A DNA stretch of 64,000 bases, from NCBI GenBank assembly GCA_963729895.1, contig CAVSQB010000009.1, positions 1 through 64,000 on the forward strand. Direction: 5' to 3'. The DNA is from an uncultured Fibrobacterota bacterium. GTDB lineage: Bacteria > Fibrobacterota > Chitinivibrionia > Chitinivibrionales > FEN-1185. Both the position numbers and the translations under genes were made by a program. Below, piece after piece: positions 6,587 through 60,020 of the stretch (position 1 is the first letter of the stretch; each line of letters starts with the position of its first letter). Under the pieces are notes generated by a model. It made no database searches and had not been told where the DNA came from. It saw nothing but the letters and a program-made list of their open reading frames with translations.

Positions 6587-9880
<3,294 letters not shown>

Positions 9881-9892
9881 ACTTAAACCTTG

Positions 9893-10399
9893 CTAATGCG
9901 TATAGGCGTGAATGCGTATAAGCGTGTAGGGATAAAGGTGTTTATTCGTGATAAAAGAATAATCATTTAGGATAACTTTCCTTTGAGATGTTTGATAAAA
10001 TTCAGTAACTTCCGCCGTAATTTTTCTATCATCTCGGGAAATTCCAAATCACCAAAAAATTTGAGCCTCCGCGATATTTCAACATGGGTTTCGAGTTCCG
10101 AAAGAGAACCAAGGCTGACATAGAGAAATTGAATATATTCCTTGATGGTATGACGTGCCGCACCTTCGGCTATATTCGAGGGAATGGAAACTGCGCATCG
10201 CCTCATTTGTGACACGAGACCGTATTGTTCCTCTCTGGGAAAGTCAGCGGTACTCTTGTAAACATATTCAACCATTTCAATTCCCAATTGCCAGATTTCA
10301 AGATCTTTGTGGGTTCGAATCAGATTTATTTCCATCACCGTGACCTTTACACTCCGCCTTTGCCGCATTTACGCATATTCGCATACACGCTCAAACGCT
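9893..10399. mobile_element. four-helix-bundle gene cassette bounded by inverted arms of 8-nt tandem repeats
   Basis: Left arm AATGCGTA TAGGCGTG AATGCGTA TAAGCGTG (9895-9926); right arm CCGCATTT ACGCATAT TCGCATAC ACGCTCAA ACGCT (10363-10399); interrupts carA-carB; AT-rich interior. Confidence 0.55.
9967..10335 (-). CDS. four helix bundle protein (23S rRNA intervening-sequence protein-like family)
   Basis: HKDLEIWQ..FPREEQYGLVSQMRRCAVSIPSNIAEG..GSLSELETH signature. Confidence 0.92.
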   Translation of the reverse strand: MEINLIRTHKDLEIWQLGIEMVEYVYKSTADFPREEQYGLVSQMRRCAVSIPSNIAEGAARHTIKEYIQFLYVSLGSLSELETHVEISRRLKFFGDLEFPEMIEKLRRKLLNFIKHLKGKLS

Positions 10400-11491
10400 C
10401 TAACTTTTTTCCATCATCTCAATAAACTGCTTGAACAGATACCCCGAATCGTGCGGGCCGGGTGAAGCCTCGGGATGATACTGGACGCAGAACATCCTGT
10501 TCGCCTTGTCGGAAAGCCCTTCGCAGGTGTGGTCGTTGAGGTTGACATGCGTCATTTTCACCCCTGCAGACGCAAGGCTTTCCACGTCCACGCAAAACCC
10601 GTGGTTTTGCGACGTGATCGCAATACCGCCTGTTTCAAGGTTCTTGACAGGATGGTTGGCGCCCCGGTGGCCGAACTTGAGTTTGTAGGTTTTCGCCCCG
10701 AGCGCCAGGCCGAGCAACTGGTGGCCGAGGCAGATGCCGAATACCGGCAGCTTTCCCAGCAGCCGGCGGATGGCTTCTACGGCGTAGGTGACCGCTGCCG
10801 GATCGCCGGGGCCGTTGCTGAGGAATATGCCGTCCGGTTTGTAGGCCAGCGCCTGCTGCGCCGTTGTGGACGCGGGCACCACCGTCACCTTGCAGCCGAG
10901 CGATTTCAGGATGCGCAGGATGTTGAACTTGACCCCAAAATCGTACGCCACCACGTTATACCGGTGGCCGTTCTTCGAGGGTTCCCATTCGTACGGCTTT
11001 GCGCACGTCACGTTCTTGACAATGTCGACATCCGCCAGGCCCTTCCAGGCTTTTGCCTTGTCGACAAGATCCGCCGTGGAAGGCGCCTTCTCTCCCGCCC
11101 AGATGACGCTTTTCATGGCGCCGCCGATCCGCAGGCGCCGCGTGAGTTTGCGTGTGTCTATGCCGCACACGCCCGTCACGCCGCTTTCCCGAAGGTAATC
11201 GCCGAGCGACCCCTGCGACCGGAAATTGGACGGATACGGGCACAGTTCCTTTACCACGAACCCCGCAACCTGGACGCGCGACGATTCCACGTCCGCTTCG
11301 TTGACGCCGTAATTGCCGATAAGCGGGTAGGTCATGGCGACGATCTGGGAACAATAGGAAGGATCGGTCAGCACTTCCTGATACCCGGAGAGGCTTGTGT
11401 TGAACACCGCCTCGCCGAAGCATTCTCCGGCAGCGCCGAATCCTTCACCCTCAAATACGGTTCCGTCTTCTAAGGCCAGTATTCCTTTCAA
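10400..11491 (-). CDS. carA: carbamoyl-phosphate synthase small subunit
   Basis: [54 protein letters not shown]; start at TTG 11491 with GAGG RBS. Confidence 0.97.
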
Positions 11492-20861: not shown

Positions 20862-22634
20862 TCATTCATAATGCCTGAATGCCGCGGCGGCCGACATGTT
20901 TGCCGCGCGCCGCGCCGGGAAATATGCCGTGACAACCGCGATGAGAAGGATAAGAAGGATGTATGCCGTCGTTCCGACGGCGGTCGGCGCGAAATTCAAA
21001 TGCCCGTTCACCAGGAGCATTCCCAACGGATTGTCCTGTGCGTGTATCTTGACAAAAGTCAACAAACCCATTGCCCCAAACGCACACACGGTTCCGGTAA
21101 CGGTCGAGAACAACGCGAGAAAGAAGGTTTCGAGCAGAAACGAATTGCGCACGTCGTTCTTCTGCATGCCGATCGACCGCATGGTGCCGATCTCCCGCGT
21201 GCGCTCCCTGATCGTCATGCGAAGGGTGTTTACCACGCCGATCAGAATGATGAAGAACAGCACCATCACCGCGCCCACGGTGATCAGGTTGATGGCGTAT
21301 TCGAGATTGACCACCATGCTCGCACTTTCGTACATCGACTGCACGTTCACGGTGAACGCATGCGTTCGCATCCTCGTGACCTCTTTGGTCTGCTTCTGCA
21401 TCTCGGTAGTGGTCCTGGTTCGCGCAAGCAGGATGTATTCCGGCGCAAGCGCCGCGTAGAACGGGCTTGTCTTGACAGGAAGGAGCGCCGCGGCCGCGGA
21501 ATCGAGAGGCCGGGGCCAGTGATCGTAGAAGAACTTGTAGAACTTCGTTTCGTTCACAAGCACCACGTTCCCGGGAAGGCCGTTCGACGGCGCGAGCACG
21601 GTGGTTATCGCAAGCTTTTCGGTACAATCGCGGTCCTCGTACTTCGGCCGGTACGTAAACAGGCACGTGTCGCCGGCGCGGGCGGCCAGCGCACGGGCAA
21701 GGCCGGCGCCGATTGCGATGCTCTCACGGCCGAAGGGTTGTTTGCCCGGCGCCACGGCGGCGATCTTTGTCGAATCGGAGAGTCGCGTTCGAACCAGGGA
21801 ATCGTTCTTGAAACAGAGCACGATTGCCGCTGCGCGTGCGGCGCCGATCTGCGCGGTCCCGCTTGCGGCGGCCACGGAAGGTTCCAGCGCAGCGTGTAAT
21901 TTGTCAGCGTACTGTTTCGCATATTTTTTCGGGTCGCGCTTGAGCATGATGTACAGTTGTCCGATGTCGTGGGGGCCATAGCCTGCCAGACGCTTCAGAT
22001 CGTGAATGTTGAGAAATATCGGTGCGGACATAAAGACATTGGCGGGCTTGAAGATGCCCGCCACGGTGAGCCGTGCGGCCTGGTTCTGGCCGTTTATGTC
22101 CTGGAACCGCACGCGAAGAATGTCGTTCTTCTTGACATTAAGCGACTTGGCCTTGGTTTGCGCCAGAAGCACCGGGTTCTCCAGGTCGGCGCGTGAGAGG
22201 TCCGCAAACGACCCTTCGAGCATCTTGAAATTCTCGGCAGCGTCTTCTTTTTCCTTCTTCGTGCCCGAGGCGTTCGGGTCCATGCCGACCATAATCACGT
22301 TGTCGTTGGCGCCGTTGCCGATGGCGCGCGCCATCACGCCGACGGCTTCCTGAATGTGCGCCACGTCCGGGATTTCCTTCTTGGCAATTGCCAACATCCG
22401 GTCGCCGTCCGTAAACAGCATCCGGTACATGTTGCCGTTCTGGGAAAAACTCACGCTGACGTGGCCGGACGTATACTGCAGGATCTTGTTGAAGATCACG
22501 TCGGAAATTCCGTGCGAGAACGCGTTGGCAAGCACCAGGATCATCATGCCGAAGGCAATGGCCGTACCCAGCAGGATGTTCCTGCGTTTCTGGCGCACCA
22601 GGTTTCGCAGGGCGATGGTGGATATGACGTTCAT
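20862..22634 (-). CDS. ABC transporter permease (FtsX/LolE-like)
   Basis: IALRNL.RQKRR, NTLRMTIRERTREIGTMRSIG, YFPARRAA. Confidence 0.9.
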   Translation of the reverse strand: MNVISTIALRNLVRQKRRNILLGTAIAFGMMILVLANAFSHGISDVIFNKILQYTSGHVSVSFSQNGNMYRMLFTDGDRMLAIAKKEIPDVAHIQEAVGVMARAIGNGANDNVIMVGMDPNASGTKKEKEDAAENFKMLEGSFADLSRADLENPVLLAQTKAKSLNVKKNDILRVRFQDINGQNQAARLTVAGIFKPANVFMSAPIFLNIHDLKRLAGYGPHDIGQLYIMLKRDPKKYAKQYADKLHAALEPSVAAASGTAQIGAARAAAIVLCFKNDSLVRTRLSDSTKIAAVAPGKQPFGRESIAIGAGLARALAARAGDTCLFTYRPKYEDRDCTEKLAITTVLAPSNGLPGNVVLVNETKFYKFFYDHWPRPLDSAAAALLPVKTSPFYAALAPEYILLARTRTTTEMQKQTKEVTRMRTHAFTVNVQSMYESASMVVNLEYAINLITVGAVMVLFFIILIGVVNTLRMTIRERTREIGTMRSIGMQKNDVRNSFLLETFFLALFSTVTGTVCAFGAMGLLTFVKIHAQDNPLGMLLVNGHLNFAPTAVGTTAYILLILLIAVVTAYFPARRAANMSAAAAFRHYE

Positions 22635-22655
22635 AGGTACTCTGAAAAGAGAAAT

Positions 22656-23147
22656 TTCACCGCAAAGGCGCAAAGAACGCAAAGAATTATTTGGCTTGAA
22701 AATTAAAGACTATTTACCAGCCTCTTAATTCCGCTTCTCAGAACGGGAACGTTGAAATTAATGATCAGGCCAAGTTTCAAGCCGGAAAGCCGCAAATACG
22801 TCAAGAGTTGCGCTTCATGAACAGGTTCCAATCGGTCAACACATTTTAGTTCCACTATGACAAGGCTCTCGACCACGATATCCAGCCTGTAAGCGCAATC
22901 AAGTTGTACACCTTTATACGATACTGGCAGCTGCTTCTGCCGTTCGTATGAAATGCCTTGTAAACCCAGTTCATGGCAAAGACAATTCTCATAGGCATTT
23001 TCGAGAAGTCCCGGGCCTATCGATTTATGAACCTCGATCGCCGCGCCGATTATGCTGTTCGATAGGAAGTCTTCCGGCTTTTCCATGACCTATCACCATC
23101 TTCATTATCTTTGCGTCTCTTTGCGAGCTTCGCGCCTTTGCGGTGAA
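22656..23147. mobile_element. GxxExxY gene cassette bounded by inverted CGCAAAG-repeat arms
   Basis: Left TTCACCGCAAAGGCGCAAAGAACGCAAAGA (22656-22685); right arm reverse complement TTCACCGCAAAGGCGCGAAGCTCGCAAAGAGACGCAAAGA (23108-23147); interrupts two permease genes. Confidence 0.6.
22703..23086 (-). CDS. GxxExxY protein (PD-(D/E)XK nuclease-like family)
   Basis: [25 protein letters not shown]...[21 protein letters not shown]. Confidence 0.93.
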
Positions 23148-23155
23148 GCCTTACT

Positions 23156-24685
23156 TCAGTCTCTTGTCACCGCATCCAGCGGCGTGATGCTCTGTGCAAT
23201 CTTGGTCGGGTACACCACCGCGATAAACGTCACGATCGCGAGCTGGACGATACTCAAAACGATGTCCATCGTAGTGAGCAACGGATGAAACGTGTCGCCG
23301 CCGAACAGCAATTGCACCATGTCGTTGTCCGAGGTCCAGCCAAAAAGCGCGAGCACATTGACGCCTGCGATGCCGCACAGGATCCCTGCGCCCCCGAACA
23401 CAAACGAGAGCATGGCTGTTTCCGCAAGGAACATGACGGAAATAAACCCCTTTTTTGCGCCCACCGCGCGCATCATGCCGATTTCGGTAGTGCGCTCGAT
23501 GGCGGCCATGCTCAGCGTATTCACGATGATGATGATCGCCACGAAGAACAGGAACATGACAAACACGAACAAAGCGCCTTTGATGATGGTGGCCATGCTG
23601 CCCACCGGGCCCAGGGCCCTTTTCCAGGAAACGGCTCGCACCCCGAGTTTTTGCTCTTTGAGGACCGCGTTGAGCTTCTTGATCGACGACGCTTCGTCCT
23701 CGCCGCTCTTGAGAAGCACGAACACCATGTTGTACGCTCCGGCGTCAACATCAACGGCAGCGGGGGACGGCGCGGCCGGGGTTGCGCGGGCGGAAACAGG
23801 CTTCAAGCTCTTCTTTGCGGTATTTTGCACCATAAGGGATTCGGACGAAAACATGGCATCAAGGTTTTCGTCCGCCATGGTAAACAGCTTCCGATCGGAC
23901 GCGGGTATGGCGATCTTGTCGGCCGCCGCAAAATATCCCAGGCACCGGCGGTACGATTCGATATCGATGACAATGAACCTTCCCCACAACGAATTAAGCG
24001 CACGGTACTGGATTATTCCCTTGATAGCGAGCCGGATGTCGGTGGTGGAATTGTCCTCGTTGAATCCCATCAGAACTGCATTCGTCTTTGGAATCAGGCT
24101 CGCGTAATCGGGTTTCACTTCTTTCGGAAGACGGGAAGAGTCGAGCGTCGTGCCTTCGGGCATGAACCAGATATTGGTGTAGGCCTGGAATTCTTTGCGT
24201 GCTTCCGCGGGCACAAGCGCACCGTGTTCGTTGTCGCCCAGCATCTGGCCGTCAATCACCTTGCAGTTCCCGGGAAACATGCTCCGGTATTTTTTCACGT
24301 CCACACCCAGAAGAAACGCAGTGCCCGGGGTGCCGCCTTCTTCGTTGAGCACCATGGCCATATTCTTTCCGGCAGGCAGGGCCCTTTCGACGTACGGTTG
24401 CTTTCCGAGCACTTTCTTAATGTCGCCGTAGTTGTAAATGGGAGCCACGGCCTTGCCCAGAAACTCGAAGAACACGTTGTCGGATTCCTGTTTGTCGGAG
24501 ATCAGCACCATATCGCCCGTAAAGCTGTGCACGATGGTCCTCTGCAGGCCCGCATCCATGCCCGATATCACACCGTTGCCCATTGTCATGATGAGCGCGC
24601 CCACAAACAGGATCGCGCCGATAATCAGGCTTTTCCCCCGGTGCCGCATGATGTTGCGCCATGCGATTTTTACGATAAGATTCAT
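23156..24685 (-). CDS. ABC transporter permease (FtsX/LolE-like)
   Basis: IAWRNI.RHRGK, NTLSMAAIERTTEIGMMRAVG. Confidence 0.9.
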   Translation of the reverse strand: MNLIVKIAWRNIMRHRGKSLIIGAILFVGALIMTMGNGVISGMDAGLQRTIVHSFTGDMVLISDKQESDNVFFEFLGKAVAPIYNYGDIKKVLGKQPYVERALPAGKNMAMVLNEEGGTPGTAFLLGVDVKKYRSMFPGNCKVIDGQMLGDNEHGALVPAEARKEFQAYTNIWFMPEGTTLDSSRLPKEVKPDYASLIPKTNAVLMGFNEDNSTTDIRLAIKGIIQYRALNSLWGRFIVIDIESYRRCLGYFAAADKIAIPASDRKLFTMADENLDAMFSSESLMVQNTAKKSLKPVSARATPAAPSPAAVDVDAGAYNMVFVLLKSGEDEASSIKKLNAVLKEQKLGVRAVSWKRALGPVGSMATIIKGALFVFVMFLFFVAIIIIVNTLSMAAIERTTEIGMMRAVGAKKGFISVMFLAETAMLSFVFGGAGILCGIAGVNVLALFGWTSDNDMVQLLFGGDTFHPLLTTMDIVLSIVQLAIVTFIAVVYPTKIAQSITPLDAVTRD

Positions 24686-34349: not shown

Positions 34350-34366
34350 ACGGAATTAAGACAGGA

Positions 34367-34396
34367 TTCACCGCAAAGACGCGAAGAACGCAGAGA
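34367..34396 (+). repeat. solo CGCAAAG-type arm
   Basis: TTCACCGCAAAGACGCGAAGAACGCAGAGA, 17 nt after the hydA stop. Confidence 0.75.
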
Positions 34397-34453
34397 AGAA
34401 ATAAGAAGATGAAATGGGGGTTTTACCGTTGCGGGAAAATATACCGATTCCAG

Positions 34454-34482
34454 CGTCATTGCGAGCGGAGCGCGGCAATCTC
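34454..34482 (+). repeat. GTCATTGCGAG...GCAATCT REP-like half element
   Basis: CGTCATTGCGAGCGGAGCGCGGCAATCTC hairpin; single copy in the window. Confidence 0.45.
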
Positions 34483-34566
34483 CGGTTGCTATTTTAGGAA
34501 AGAAAAGTCTTGTGCAGAAAACAAACGTGACAAATAGAAATCCACTCTAACAAACGAGGTGCTTGT

Positions 34567-48739: not shown

Positions 48740-48812
48740 TTCACCACGGAGACAAACATCCAACACGATTTTGCTCTTCTTCTTCTCTGCGTTCTCCGTG
48801 CCTCCGTGGTGA
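48740..48812. repeat. gene-less element with inverted TCACCACGGAG-type arms
   Basis: TTCACCACGGAGAC ... TCTCTGCGTTCTCCGTGCCTCCGTGGTGA between hdrA and mvhD. Confidence 0.7.
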
Positions 48813-48819
48813 TTTTACT

Positions 48820-53634: not shown

Positions 53635-53761
53635 TCACCGCAAAGACGCAAAGGTCGCAAAGAAAAATCGAATAGTTAAGAGCAACATTGCTTTCGTTGC
53701 AAATTTCTGTCACAATTTTGGTAACTTTTTTGACTTCGCGTTCTTTGCGCCTTTGCGGTGA
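53635..53761. repeat. gene-less element with inverted CGCAAAG arms
   Basis: TCACCGCAAAGACGCAAAGGTCGCAAAGA ... CTTCGCGTTCTTTGCGCCTTTGCGGTGA. Confidence 0.85.
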
Positions 53762-59744: not shown

Positions 59745-59786
59745 GACGTTTTGTCCCTTTTTGTTCCGTCAAAAGAAATGCAAGAC

Positions 59787-59905
59787 TCACCGCAAAGACA
59801 CAAAGGTCGCAAAGGAATGCAGAATTGTTACGTCAAGAAAGTTGACAATATGCTGCATTTGCTCTATTTCCAGTTTTCTTTGCGTCCTTCGCGCCTTTGC
59901 GGTAA
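59787..59905. repeat. gene-less element with inverted CGCAAAG arms
   Basis: TCACCGCAAAGACACAAAGGTCGCAAAG ... CTTTGCGTCCTTCGCGCCTTTGCGGTAA. Confidence 0.85.
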
Positions 59906-59979
59906 ATCTCCTCTTCCGAACGATCAATTTCCAGGATCTTTCCCTTCACCGGTAAAAGCCTAACGTACTCTCCGGTACT

Positions 59980-60009
59980 TCTCTGTGTTCTCCGTGTCTC
60001 CGTGGTGAA
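59980..60009 (-). repeat. TCACCACGGAG-type arm (partner degenerate)
   Basis: Reverse complement TTCACCACGGAGACACGGAGAACACAGAGA, 11 nt after the stop at 60021. Confidence 0.7.
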
Positions 60010-60020
60010 TCCTATTCCCC

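Follow-up and report, generated by a model that had tools for sequence, protein, structure and literature searches.

A GxxExxY nuclease gene between inverted tandem-word arms in a Fibrobacterota genome: a candidate self-recognising cassette

What relation does a gene for a small nuclease-like protein bear to the inverted, word-built arms that enclose it? This question is raised by a 492-base-pair (bp) unit at positions 22656-23147 of a 64,000-nucleotide stretch of DNA from an uncultured Fibrobacterota bacterium (GenBank assembly GCA_963729895.1, contig CAVSQB010000009.1), which at its whole length is called the window here. The unit is made of a GxxExxY/PDDEXK_3 gene boxed by CGCAAAG-type arms with TTCACC ends, and it sits between two permease genes, 8 nucleotides (nt) from one and 21 nt from the other; a first description made from the letters of the window (the sequence-only reading) proved accurate on these points, according to the coordinates and a repeat finder. 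The reading preferred here, to which a probability of roughly 0.45 is given, is that the unit belongs to a widespread class of cassettes in which a small PD-(D/E)XK nuclease with intact catalytic residues is encoded between arms that it recognises itself.

The repeat finder placed the arms at 22656-22685 and 23118-23147 (30 nt, 90% complementary, 432 nt apart), and a fourth word in the right arm extends it to 23109-23147. The outer end of each arm is TTCACC, behind which words of the CGCAAAG type follow one another with a period of 8-9 nt. The cassette is located inside an operon, on the operon strand and just past a stop codon. Chance is excluded as the origin of the words, since the window has six occurrences of a two-word pattern for which 0.10 would be expected, a number reached by none of 100 shuffles. 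In addition, contigs with other copies part from the locus at 22655/6, 22686/7, 23109 and 23147, positions that coincide with the limits of the arms.

The association between gene and arms extends across phyla. Two separate samples of homologue loci were used, one of 80 loci in genome contigs, covering many bacterial phyla and two archaea, and another of 80 loci in metagenome contigs. For the genome-contig loci, compared with 288 shifted controls, the best flanking inverted repeat exceeded the control maximum in 65 of 80 (median 18, control maximum 11). An anchor formed by ACC plus a word was present on both sides of the gene in 60 of these loci; another 11 had it on a single side and 9 had none, while none of the 288 controls had it on both sides. 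The metagenome loci gave a similar picture, with the anchor on both sides in 59/80 and on at least one side in 70/80; inverted tandem-word arms in the flanks of homologues, which the sequence-only reading had proposed to look for, were thus found in both samples. The TTC that precedes ACC lay outside the search pattern and is nevertheless conserved (T 73%, T 81%, C 63%), with no conservation further out, which identifies TTCACC as the true end. Behind this end, the words follow the formula C-R-C-R-R-A-G and are repeated two to four times in tandem per arm. When cassettes are sorted by a first-word type that is the same in both arms, CACAGAG is found in 14, CACGGAG in 9, CGCAAAG in 7, CGCAGAG in 5 and CACGAAG in 5, with 17 rarer or mixed cases.

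The arms are conserved in a manner that points to the words as the units being read, and not to an optimised stem. Among the 57 of 60 anchored cassettes with arms long enough for these statistics, the left and right arms share the variable letters of the words in 95-98% of cases (41-61% when different cassettes are compared), while the spacer letters agree between arms in just 60% and 49%, against a background of 40%. Within one arm, the variable letters of the first and second words agree in 76% of cases, compared with 48% between cassettes. Isolated mismatches between the arms comprise 36 G.U and 33 A.C in the sense RNA and 43 transversions, and show no G.U bias.

These data bear directly on an explanation at the RNA level, in which the unit would behave like an intervening sequence of ribosomal RNA (rRNA): RNase III would cut the arm stem, freeing the cassette mRNA and keeping the operon functional, and the nuclease would be an unrelated cargo that does not touch the arms. 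The precedent is found in helix 45 of the Coxiella burnetii 23S rRNA, whose intervening sequence of 428-444 nt is closed by a terminal stem of 28 bp, in which RNase III cuts (PMC4990558). Folding of the transcribed strand is in keeping with this model, as the cassette arms pair in the minimum-energy fold (z -5.45) and two gene-less hairpins of the window behave likewise (z -5.6 and -9.7), and so is the position of the unit right after a stop codon on the strand of its operon. For 67 of the 80 loci the genes on both sides were identified, and these were co-directional in 35, convergent in 14 and divergent in 18; in the 35 co-directional loci the cassette gene runs with its neighbours in 27 and against them in 8. 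Co-transcription with the host genes is hence favoured by the cassettes, although it is dispensable, since 32 of the 67 lie between convergent or divergent genes, which counts against the RNA-level model. A stem alone, moreover, needs no fixed sequence, yet TTCACC and C-R-C-R-R-A-G recur across phyla; the spacer letters are not kept complementary, 43 of the 112 mismatches are transversions with no excess of G.U (36 vs 33), and the covariation with the protein described below has no place in the model. We regard it as an unlikely full account of the arms, even though it is compatible with a nuclease that recognises its own arms, and both can be true together.

A further point in favour of the RNA-level explanation is that an unrelated gene of the source genome (referred to as G000; 4.41 Mb, 41 contigs, 96.7% complete) is built in the same way. 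This gene, for a four-helix-bundle protein (TIGR02436), lies at 9982-10296 of the window on the minus strand and is boxed at 9880-10400 by GCGTATA/GCGTGAA-like inverted arms; a second TIGR02436 cassette on another contig of G000 (L002, about 1420-1900) uses GTTGAAAAG-like words. The cassette architecture is common to both gene families, and the arm sequence is particular to each. Consequently, of the parallel with the four-helix-bundle cassette that had been drawn from the window, the architecture stands, and no relationship extends to the arm words, which are unrelated in both TIGR02436 cassettes.

The protein encoded in the unit has the features expected of a nuclease. It matches PF13366 PDDEXK_3 (E 2.7e-44, 150.7 bits against a cut-off of 22) and TIGR04256 GxxExxY (156.9 bits against a cut-off of 35). 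Its GxxExxY motif is G26-L-L-E29-N-A-Y32, and catalytic-type residues are present at D69 and E79-L80-K81 of the 127 amino acids (aa); neither the motif nor D69 and E79-L80-K81 vary among the 20 homologues that were aligned. An AlphaFold2 model (predicted local distance difference test, pLDDT, 91.8; predicted template modelling score, pTM, 0.85) was compared with known structures using VIA-align, whose best rows are all PD-(D/E)XK nucleases with Z of 6-7.6, including the BpuSI nuclease domain (7.6), Cas4 SSO0001 (7.5), BglII (7.1) and Hjc (6.2). For Hjc, 87 residues of 1gef were aligned with a root-mean-square deviation of 3.4, and 2wiw gave a template modelling (TM) score of 0.45-0.47. Foldseek against the PDB returned no match at E <= 0.001 (best E 5.4e-3), and the catalytic domain of I-Bth0305I is among its weak matches; a search for solved structures related by sequence gave none, its lone row (E 0.93) being spurious. 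Judged from the model, the protein has a PD-(D/E)XK fold, which bears out, together with the 20-sequence alignment, the fold and the D..ELK residues that the sequence-only reading gave for GxxExxY proteins; fold scores are silent on the substrate. With 7999 of 8000 scored candidates at E <= 1e-3, the family is a very large one. Identity to the window protein is 66-82% among the 120 matches listed, the window's own entry apart, and about 57-82% across the phyla listed, and this identity and the invariance of the D, E and K residues indicate a protein under strong constraint.

The arms also covary with the protein. Among the first 44 labelled cassettes, which served as the discovery set, column 9 of the alignment (residue N10 of the window protein) was the most informative on word position 5, with a mutual information of 0.61 against a 95th-percentile null of 0.45. 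Ten cassettes in relatives that had not been used for discovery agree with this rule, as all four of AAG type have Ser-Asn at residues 9-10 (S-N) and all six of GAG type have T-E or T-G; in the metagenome sample, N is enriched with A (Fisher p 0.007, for observations that are not independent), and K is also seen with A. When the cassettes are combined (142), residue 10 is N or K in 21 cassettes with AAG words and another residue in 3, while with GAG words the figures are 6 and 112; E at this residue accompanies G in 53 cassettes and A in none. The window protein, with S9-N10, is of the type that accompanies ..AAG words, and at the same site within the genus G000 and its relative G001 combine S-N with AAG words, and another relative, G003, T-G with GAG words. 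Thus, the co-variation of arms and protein that had been proposed as a check was found, in the form of residue 10 tracking word position 5. A copy of the word hidden in codons 8-10 was considered as the cause and ruled out, because the synonymous positions of these codons vary freely; this places the link between residue 10 and the word at the level of the protein.

The AAG-type proteins do not form one clade. With the N-terminal columns left out, a tree that unites all 24 of them is rejected by the approximately unbiased (AU) test (p 0.0011, log-likelihood difference 97), and among 13 branch-disjoint AAG/GAG pairs on a FastTree tree, 11 differ as predicted, none in the opposite direction and 2 not at all (sign test, p about 0.001). 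Word type requires 18 changes on the 44 tips of the protein tree, compared with a mean of 26.0 and a minimum of 21 in 500 shuffles; word type thus appears partly clustered on the tree, as co-inheritance would give, with frequent switching. Two more pairings came out of an exploratory comparison, uncorrected for multiple testing: word position 2 with R104 (36 A vs 3 G; 11 pairs the same way, 0 opposite, 13 without difference) and word position 4 with P114 (9 pairs the same way, 1 opposite, 6 without difference). Contacts of Asn with adenine and of Glu with the cytosine of a G:C pair are common in protein-DNA complexes, and if they apply here, the words would be read as duplex.

Word-level conservation and covariation between residues and letters are what any sequence-specific binder would leave behind, which is why the arms could in principle be only operators, with the protein acting as a nuclease-fold autorepressor or as a restrained nuclease of a defence or toxin type, and with the hairpins being decayed cassettes. 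The end of the upstream arm, 22 nt ahead of the start codon, would suit an operator. Nevertheless, an operator has no need for a second, inverted copy downstream of the gene or for a conserved outer end, the catalytic residues do not vary among the 20 aligned sequences, the loops of the hairpins hold no trace of the gene, and 45 to 146 arms per genome are too many for the remains of a single-copy gene. This explanation is judged improbable, the most so of those weighed here.

The gene-less copies are indeed the prevailing form of the element. Arms were counted in genomes with a strict pattern (CACC-word-N-word) and its reversal as a control, which gave 0-1. G000 has one GxxExxY gene and 45 arms, mostly in gene-less hairpins, and so the gene-less relatives implied by calling the cassette an autonomous member do exist. 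By their words, 23 arms hold two ..AAG words (CGCAAAG type), 17 hold two ..GAG words (mostly CACGGAG) and 5 are mixed. The CGCAAAG-type arms form 15 pairs including the cassette, enclosing 73-482 bp, and the 14 gene-less ones have unrelated loops; CACGGAG-type gene-less pairs are also present, and some arms are solo. To follow the site, 40 related genomes were searched with window positions 22000-23800 and the orthologous site was then read genome by genome. The arm counts are 63 in G001, 146 in G003, 21 in G004, 63 in G005, 10 in G038 and 0-2 in each of the other 35 genomes, and the AAG-type arms amount to 23 in G000, 41 in G001, 53 in G003, 2 in G004 and 29 in G005. The gene was found in 26 of the 41 genomes. 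G000, G001 and G003 share the site of their single copy, while the one copy of G002 is located elsewhere and has other words.

At the orthologous site, G001 carries a GxxExxY cassette with CGCAAAG words, G003 a cassette with all six words of CACAGAG type, and G005 a hairpin that lacks the gene, has two CGCAGAG words in each arm and encloses a loop of about 55 nt. No element occupies the site in G004, where the permease genes are 8 nt apart, and it is likewise empty in G002, G006, G007, G010, G013 and G033. Polymorphism at this site, which the sequence-only reading had taken as a test of its proposal, therefore includes cassettes of two word types, a gene-less hairpin and an empty state. The hairpin of G005 was considered as a deletion remnant of the gene, and this was rejected, as its loop has no convincing similarity to the gene. 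In the tree of the upstream permease, G001 and G005 are sisters (support 94/95), so that the state, with gene or gene-less, differs between sister genomes; G000, G003 and G004 form a polytomy with this pair, which is compatible with gain as well as with loss at the focal site, the empty state of G004 included. The GxxExxY protein of G000 is 64% identical to that of G003 and 71% to that of G001. For the upstream permease the identities to G000 are 75% (G003), 71% (G001), 73% (G005), 70% (G004), 61% (G007) and 56% (G002), and for the downstream one 77%, 76% (partial), 72%, 67%, 56% and 47%, in the same order. These values fit an old, vertical inheritance of the cassette. Other sites of the window vary in a comparable manner. 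G003 and G005 have a counterpart of the 53636 hairpin at the orthologous site, with conserved arms and loops that cannot be aligned, and the site is empty in G004. At 59788-60010, the element content is different in each of four genomes, but all four share the stop codon next to which, give or take a few bases, the right end lies.

The abundance of gene-less hairpins gives rise to the inverse view of the association, namely that the hairpins are an independent repeat family, host-serving or spread by other means, and the GxxExxY gene a homing-type passenger that cuts gene-less hairpins and is copied into them by repair through arm homology. Homing endonucleases with a PD-(D/E)XK fold exist, and the I-Bth0305I catalytic domain is among the weak fold matches of the window protein. 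Hairpins far exceed genes and exist without the gene (G004), their arms are conserved while their loops have diverged beyond alignment, and occupied and unoccupied alleles of one site, as homing requires, are found at the focal site, where the sister genomes G001 and G005 hold the gene and a gene-less hairpin, respectively. On the other hand, homing should multiply the gene, and G000, G001 and G003 have a single copy each beside dozens of hairpins; the G005 loop holds no gene remnant, so that the change may have gone either way; and no other candidate mobiliser of the hairpins was found in G000. We consider this view about as unlikely as the RNA-level explanation.

A Y1 transposase was considered as such a mobiliser. 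G000 has eight Y1_Tnp matches, whose full-length copies make up an IS200-like element of about 560 bp with its own terminal hairpins. A REP-associated tyrosine transposase (RAYT) or IS200 was rejected as the mobiliser of the arms, given that this element is multi-copy and has its own ends without the arm motif. The six full-length Y1 genes (144 aa) are located at C5:146214, C5:430734, C15:79585, C31:83634, C40:38630 and C22:78; five score identically and C22:78 slightly lower, and such identical copies suggest recent activity of the IS200-like element.

Several observations weigh against a nuclease that recognises and mobilises its own arms. The absence of a recombinase and of a target-site duplication reported by the sequence-only reading was confirmed: the unit has a lone PDDEXK_3 open reading frame (ORF) and no recombinase or transposase of the DDE, HUH, serine or tyrosine types, no duplication is present in the 8-nt flanks AGAGAAAT and GCCTTACT, and none is clear when these are compared with the empty G004 sites. 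No excision joint or recent insertion was found in contigs of four DNA runs, whose cover of the locus is fragmentary. The gene was not found in G004 (94% complete), which nonetheless has 21 arms; G003 has 53 AAG-type arms but a GAG-type gene, and in G000, 17 arms are of GAG type beside a lone gene of AAG type. Arm populations are not simply tied to the presence of a matching gene. The cassette and the 53636 hairpin are common to species whose flanking proteins are just 67-77% identical, which makes these copies old. In relatives of other genera, the arms are built from other words (CACGGATGA, CGCGAATGA, CACGAAA and GGATTAC-type), and those of GGATTAC type have GTCTGAACC as their end. In 20 of the 80 genome-contig loci, the anchor is missing from one side or from both. 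As for the covariation, the protein tree is weak, with just 2 contrast pairs on well-supported branches, and the covarying columns were chosen after viewing the data, out of some 127 columns x 3 positions and without correction. Finally, to our knowledge PD-(D/E)XK nucleases hydrolyse DNA and cannot join strands, and any spread would thus need host repair. Orphan arm populations, old vertical copies and the lack of duplications and joints are at odds with arms that simply depend on the gene, and mobilisation by the nuclease is an inference. The proposal that the nuclease mobilises or maintains an element family is partly supported: the gene-less copies, the site polymorphism and the residue covariation agree with it, and the part concerning mobilisation has the old copies, the missing joints and duplications and the orphan arms against it.

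With these points considered, the gene-plus-arms unit is real and family-specific, with gene-less copies and polymorphism at its site, and its association with arms across phyla, the conservation of its words and the covariation between residue and letter are matters of observation. Taken together, they suggest that the protein may read the words of its own arms, and that gene and arms may constitute a self-recognising and occasionally mobile unit; binding, cleavage and movement driven by the protein are what we infer from them. In the mechanism proposed, several copies of the protein would bind to neighbouring words, either of duplex DNA or of a stem, with the N-terminal end of helix 1 (residue 10) reading word position 5. 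The cut would fall at the conserved end or close to it, or else in the extruded hairpin, and repair of the break, or gene conversion between arm-bearing sites, would keep the arms uniform. The same processes might occasionally place copies of the arms, alone or together with the gene, at other intergenic positions, and pairing of the arms in the operon transcript may let the host operon tolerate the insert. The most far-reaching version of the hypothesis is that GxxExxY proteins in general are sequence-reading nucleases, with residue 10 assigned to word position 5 and possibly residue 104 to position 2, and the engine of widespread, so far undescribed hairpin elements, as a nuclease-based counterpart of the system discussed next; this generalisation is doubtful at present. 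If true, it would give the family its first function and suggest how ORF-bearing intervening sequences of rRNA may have arisen.

The closest parallel is the partnership of REPINs, doublets of repetitive extragenic palindromes (REPs), with a single-copy RAYT (PMC3116915, PMC3337134, bioRxiv 10.1101/2022.05.22.493013). In both systems, a single-copy enzyme gene lies between inverted copies of a short dispersed repeat, many gene-less inverted doublets occupy intergenic DNA, gene and repeats are mostly vertical, and the repeat populations are genome-specific. The enzyme is in this case, unlike in REPIN-RAYT, a hydrolytic PD-(D/E)XK nuclease of 127 aa and not an HUH Y1 transposase, the arms are tandem 7-nt words behind TTCACC instead of a single REP palindrome, and movement of the GxxExxY unit is putative. 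That the nuclease recognises its own arms in a REPIN-RAYT-like partnership based on a different enzyme fold is a tentative claim, to which slightly less than even odds can be conceded.

According to descriptions of the family, the GxxExxY gene is multi-copy in many other genomes, which is a further difference from REPIN-RAYT. A second parallel, with rRNA intervening sequences, concerns the whole unit, which shares with them a length of about 430-500 nt, one small ORF, stem-forming terminal inverted repeats, the lack of a transposase, a sporadic distribution suggestive of horizontal transfer, and an ORF long suspected of a role in mobility. In PMC4990558, the origin and mobility of the intervening sequence are called unclear, and the idea that its ORF serves mobility is credited to Ralph and McClelland 1993 (Leptospira). 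The GxxExxY unit differs in its location between protein-coding genes and not in a 23S rRNA helix, in its nuclease-fold ORF (PF13366 being the sole Pfam match) in place of the S23p four-helix bundle, and in a word-built arm sequence that is conserved across phyla.

Regarding classical transposition systems, transposon ends can carry several subterminal binding sites, and TnsA of Tn7 is a PD-(D/E)XK subunit that takes part in end processing. Ends of the Tn7/TnsA type thus resemble the unit in their inverted, tandem words, here candidate protein-binding sites, and in their PD-(D/E)XK nuclease, and the unit is unlike them in its lack of a DDE partner and of a target-site duplication and in having one protein of 127 aa. 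With insertion sequences and miniature inverted-repeat transposable elements (MITEs) it shares the terminal inverted repeats, and it is set apart from them by the absence of a target-site duplication and of a transposase in the gene-bearing unit. The archaeal Holliday-junction resolvase Hjc and other minimal PD-(D/E)XK nucleases have a similar size and core fold, and a cruciform of the arms would be a four-way junction; the protein has no sequence relationship to them, and the scores reflect generic fold similarity. In PMC3424549, TnsA is tabulated as a transposase and PDDEXK_3 is given the function 'Unknown', with an occurrence in prokaryotes and viruses and multiple transfers. In the literature searched, with most subscription journals outside it, no description of a system of gene plus arms was found, and, judging by titles, none of the function or the flanks of the family.

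The coordinates of the features of the window are collected in the table. In the leader between the upstream arm and the gene, GGTGAT would be a Shine-Dalgarno-like sequence.

Table. The cassette, its host genes and other arm-bearing elements of the window
Feature	Positions	Strand	Remarks
GxxExxY / PDDEXK_3 gene	22703..23086	-	127 aa; sole ORF with a family match inside the arms
Arm upstream of the gene	23109..23147	-	On the gene strand TTCACC, then four words: GCAAAG, CGCGAAG, CGCAAAG, CGCAAAG
Arm downstream of the gene	22656..22685	+	TTCACC, then three CGCAAAG words; inverted relative to the upstream arm
Leader between upstream arm and ATG	23087..23108	-	22 nt; GGTGAT 6-7 nt before the start codon
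FtsX-type ABC permease, upstream host gene	23156..24685	-	TGA at 23156-23158, 8 nt from the arm
FtsX-type ABC permease, downstream host gene	20862..22634	-	ATG at 22634-22632, 21 nt from the arm
Gene-less hairpin, CGCAAAG arms	53636..53760	.	
Gene-less hairpin, CGCAAAG-type arms	59788..59901	.	
Gene-less hairpin, second arm population (CACGGAG words)	48740..48813	.	Left arm truncated
Solo arm	34366..34396	+	TTCACC, then CGCAAAG, CGCGAAG, CGCAGAG; no partner detectable within 2.5 kb
Solo arm, CACGGAG type	about 59980..60010	-	Adjoins the 59788-59901 hairpin

Some additional observations concern the arms and their surroundings. In G000, a 266-bp CGCAAAG-armed hairpin (C5:366737-367002) holds in its loop an unrelated perfect palindrome (CCCCCTAAATCCCCCGAAGGGGG ... 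and its complement), and a solo CACAGAG-type arm is nested in a CGCAAAG-armed hairpin at C19:149448-149583; in G003, the two arm types are often 40-130 bp apart. This nesting and proximity suggest that the elements insert into or beside one another. A palindromic motif, CATTGCGAGCG..GCG..GCAATCTC, occurs beside or inside arm elements, at 34440-34490 of the window and at C22:168576-168732 of G000, and looks like a separate small repeat family. At the G004 orthologue of window positions 59750-60010 (L141), a hairpin with CTCACC...GGTGAG ends (CTCACCCCCGC...GCGGGGTGAG) is present, and it has no C-R-C-R-R-A-G words.

With respect to the gene, the lone match in G005 is found elsewhere in that genome (L126, C10:26750-27031); it is partial, covers model positions 24-116 and has GCCACAGAG-type arms. 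The first 22 codons or so (M R V N D N A I T E K A I G G A I E V H K A) are located just upstream and unjoined, and this locus is possibly a frameshifted copy of the gene. Several gene calls of homologues (P0024, P0028, P0034, P0042, P0091 and P0107) start or stop inside the arms, with the words translated as low-complexity tails such as HKDTKDTK, SPQRRKGRKEK or ...SPRLRGEF; tails of this kind are an annotation artefact that could mark further cassettes.

If the preferred reading is true, that is, if the nuclease recognises the arms between which it is encoded, the GxxExxY family would gain a candidate substrate and a testable recognition rule, and the abundant word-built hairpins of many genomes would be explained. 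The unit would represent a second bacterial partnership of a repeat with an enzyme, with a mechanism unlike that of REPIN-RAYT, and the link to rRNA intervening sequences would become testable. A small nuclease whose specificity shifts by single residues could, in that case, also be of practical interest.

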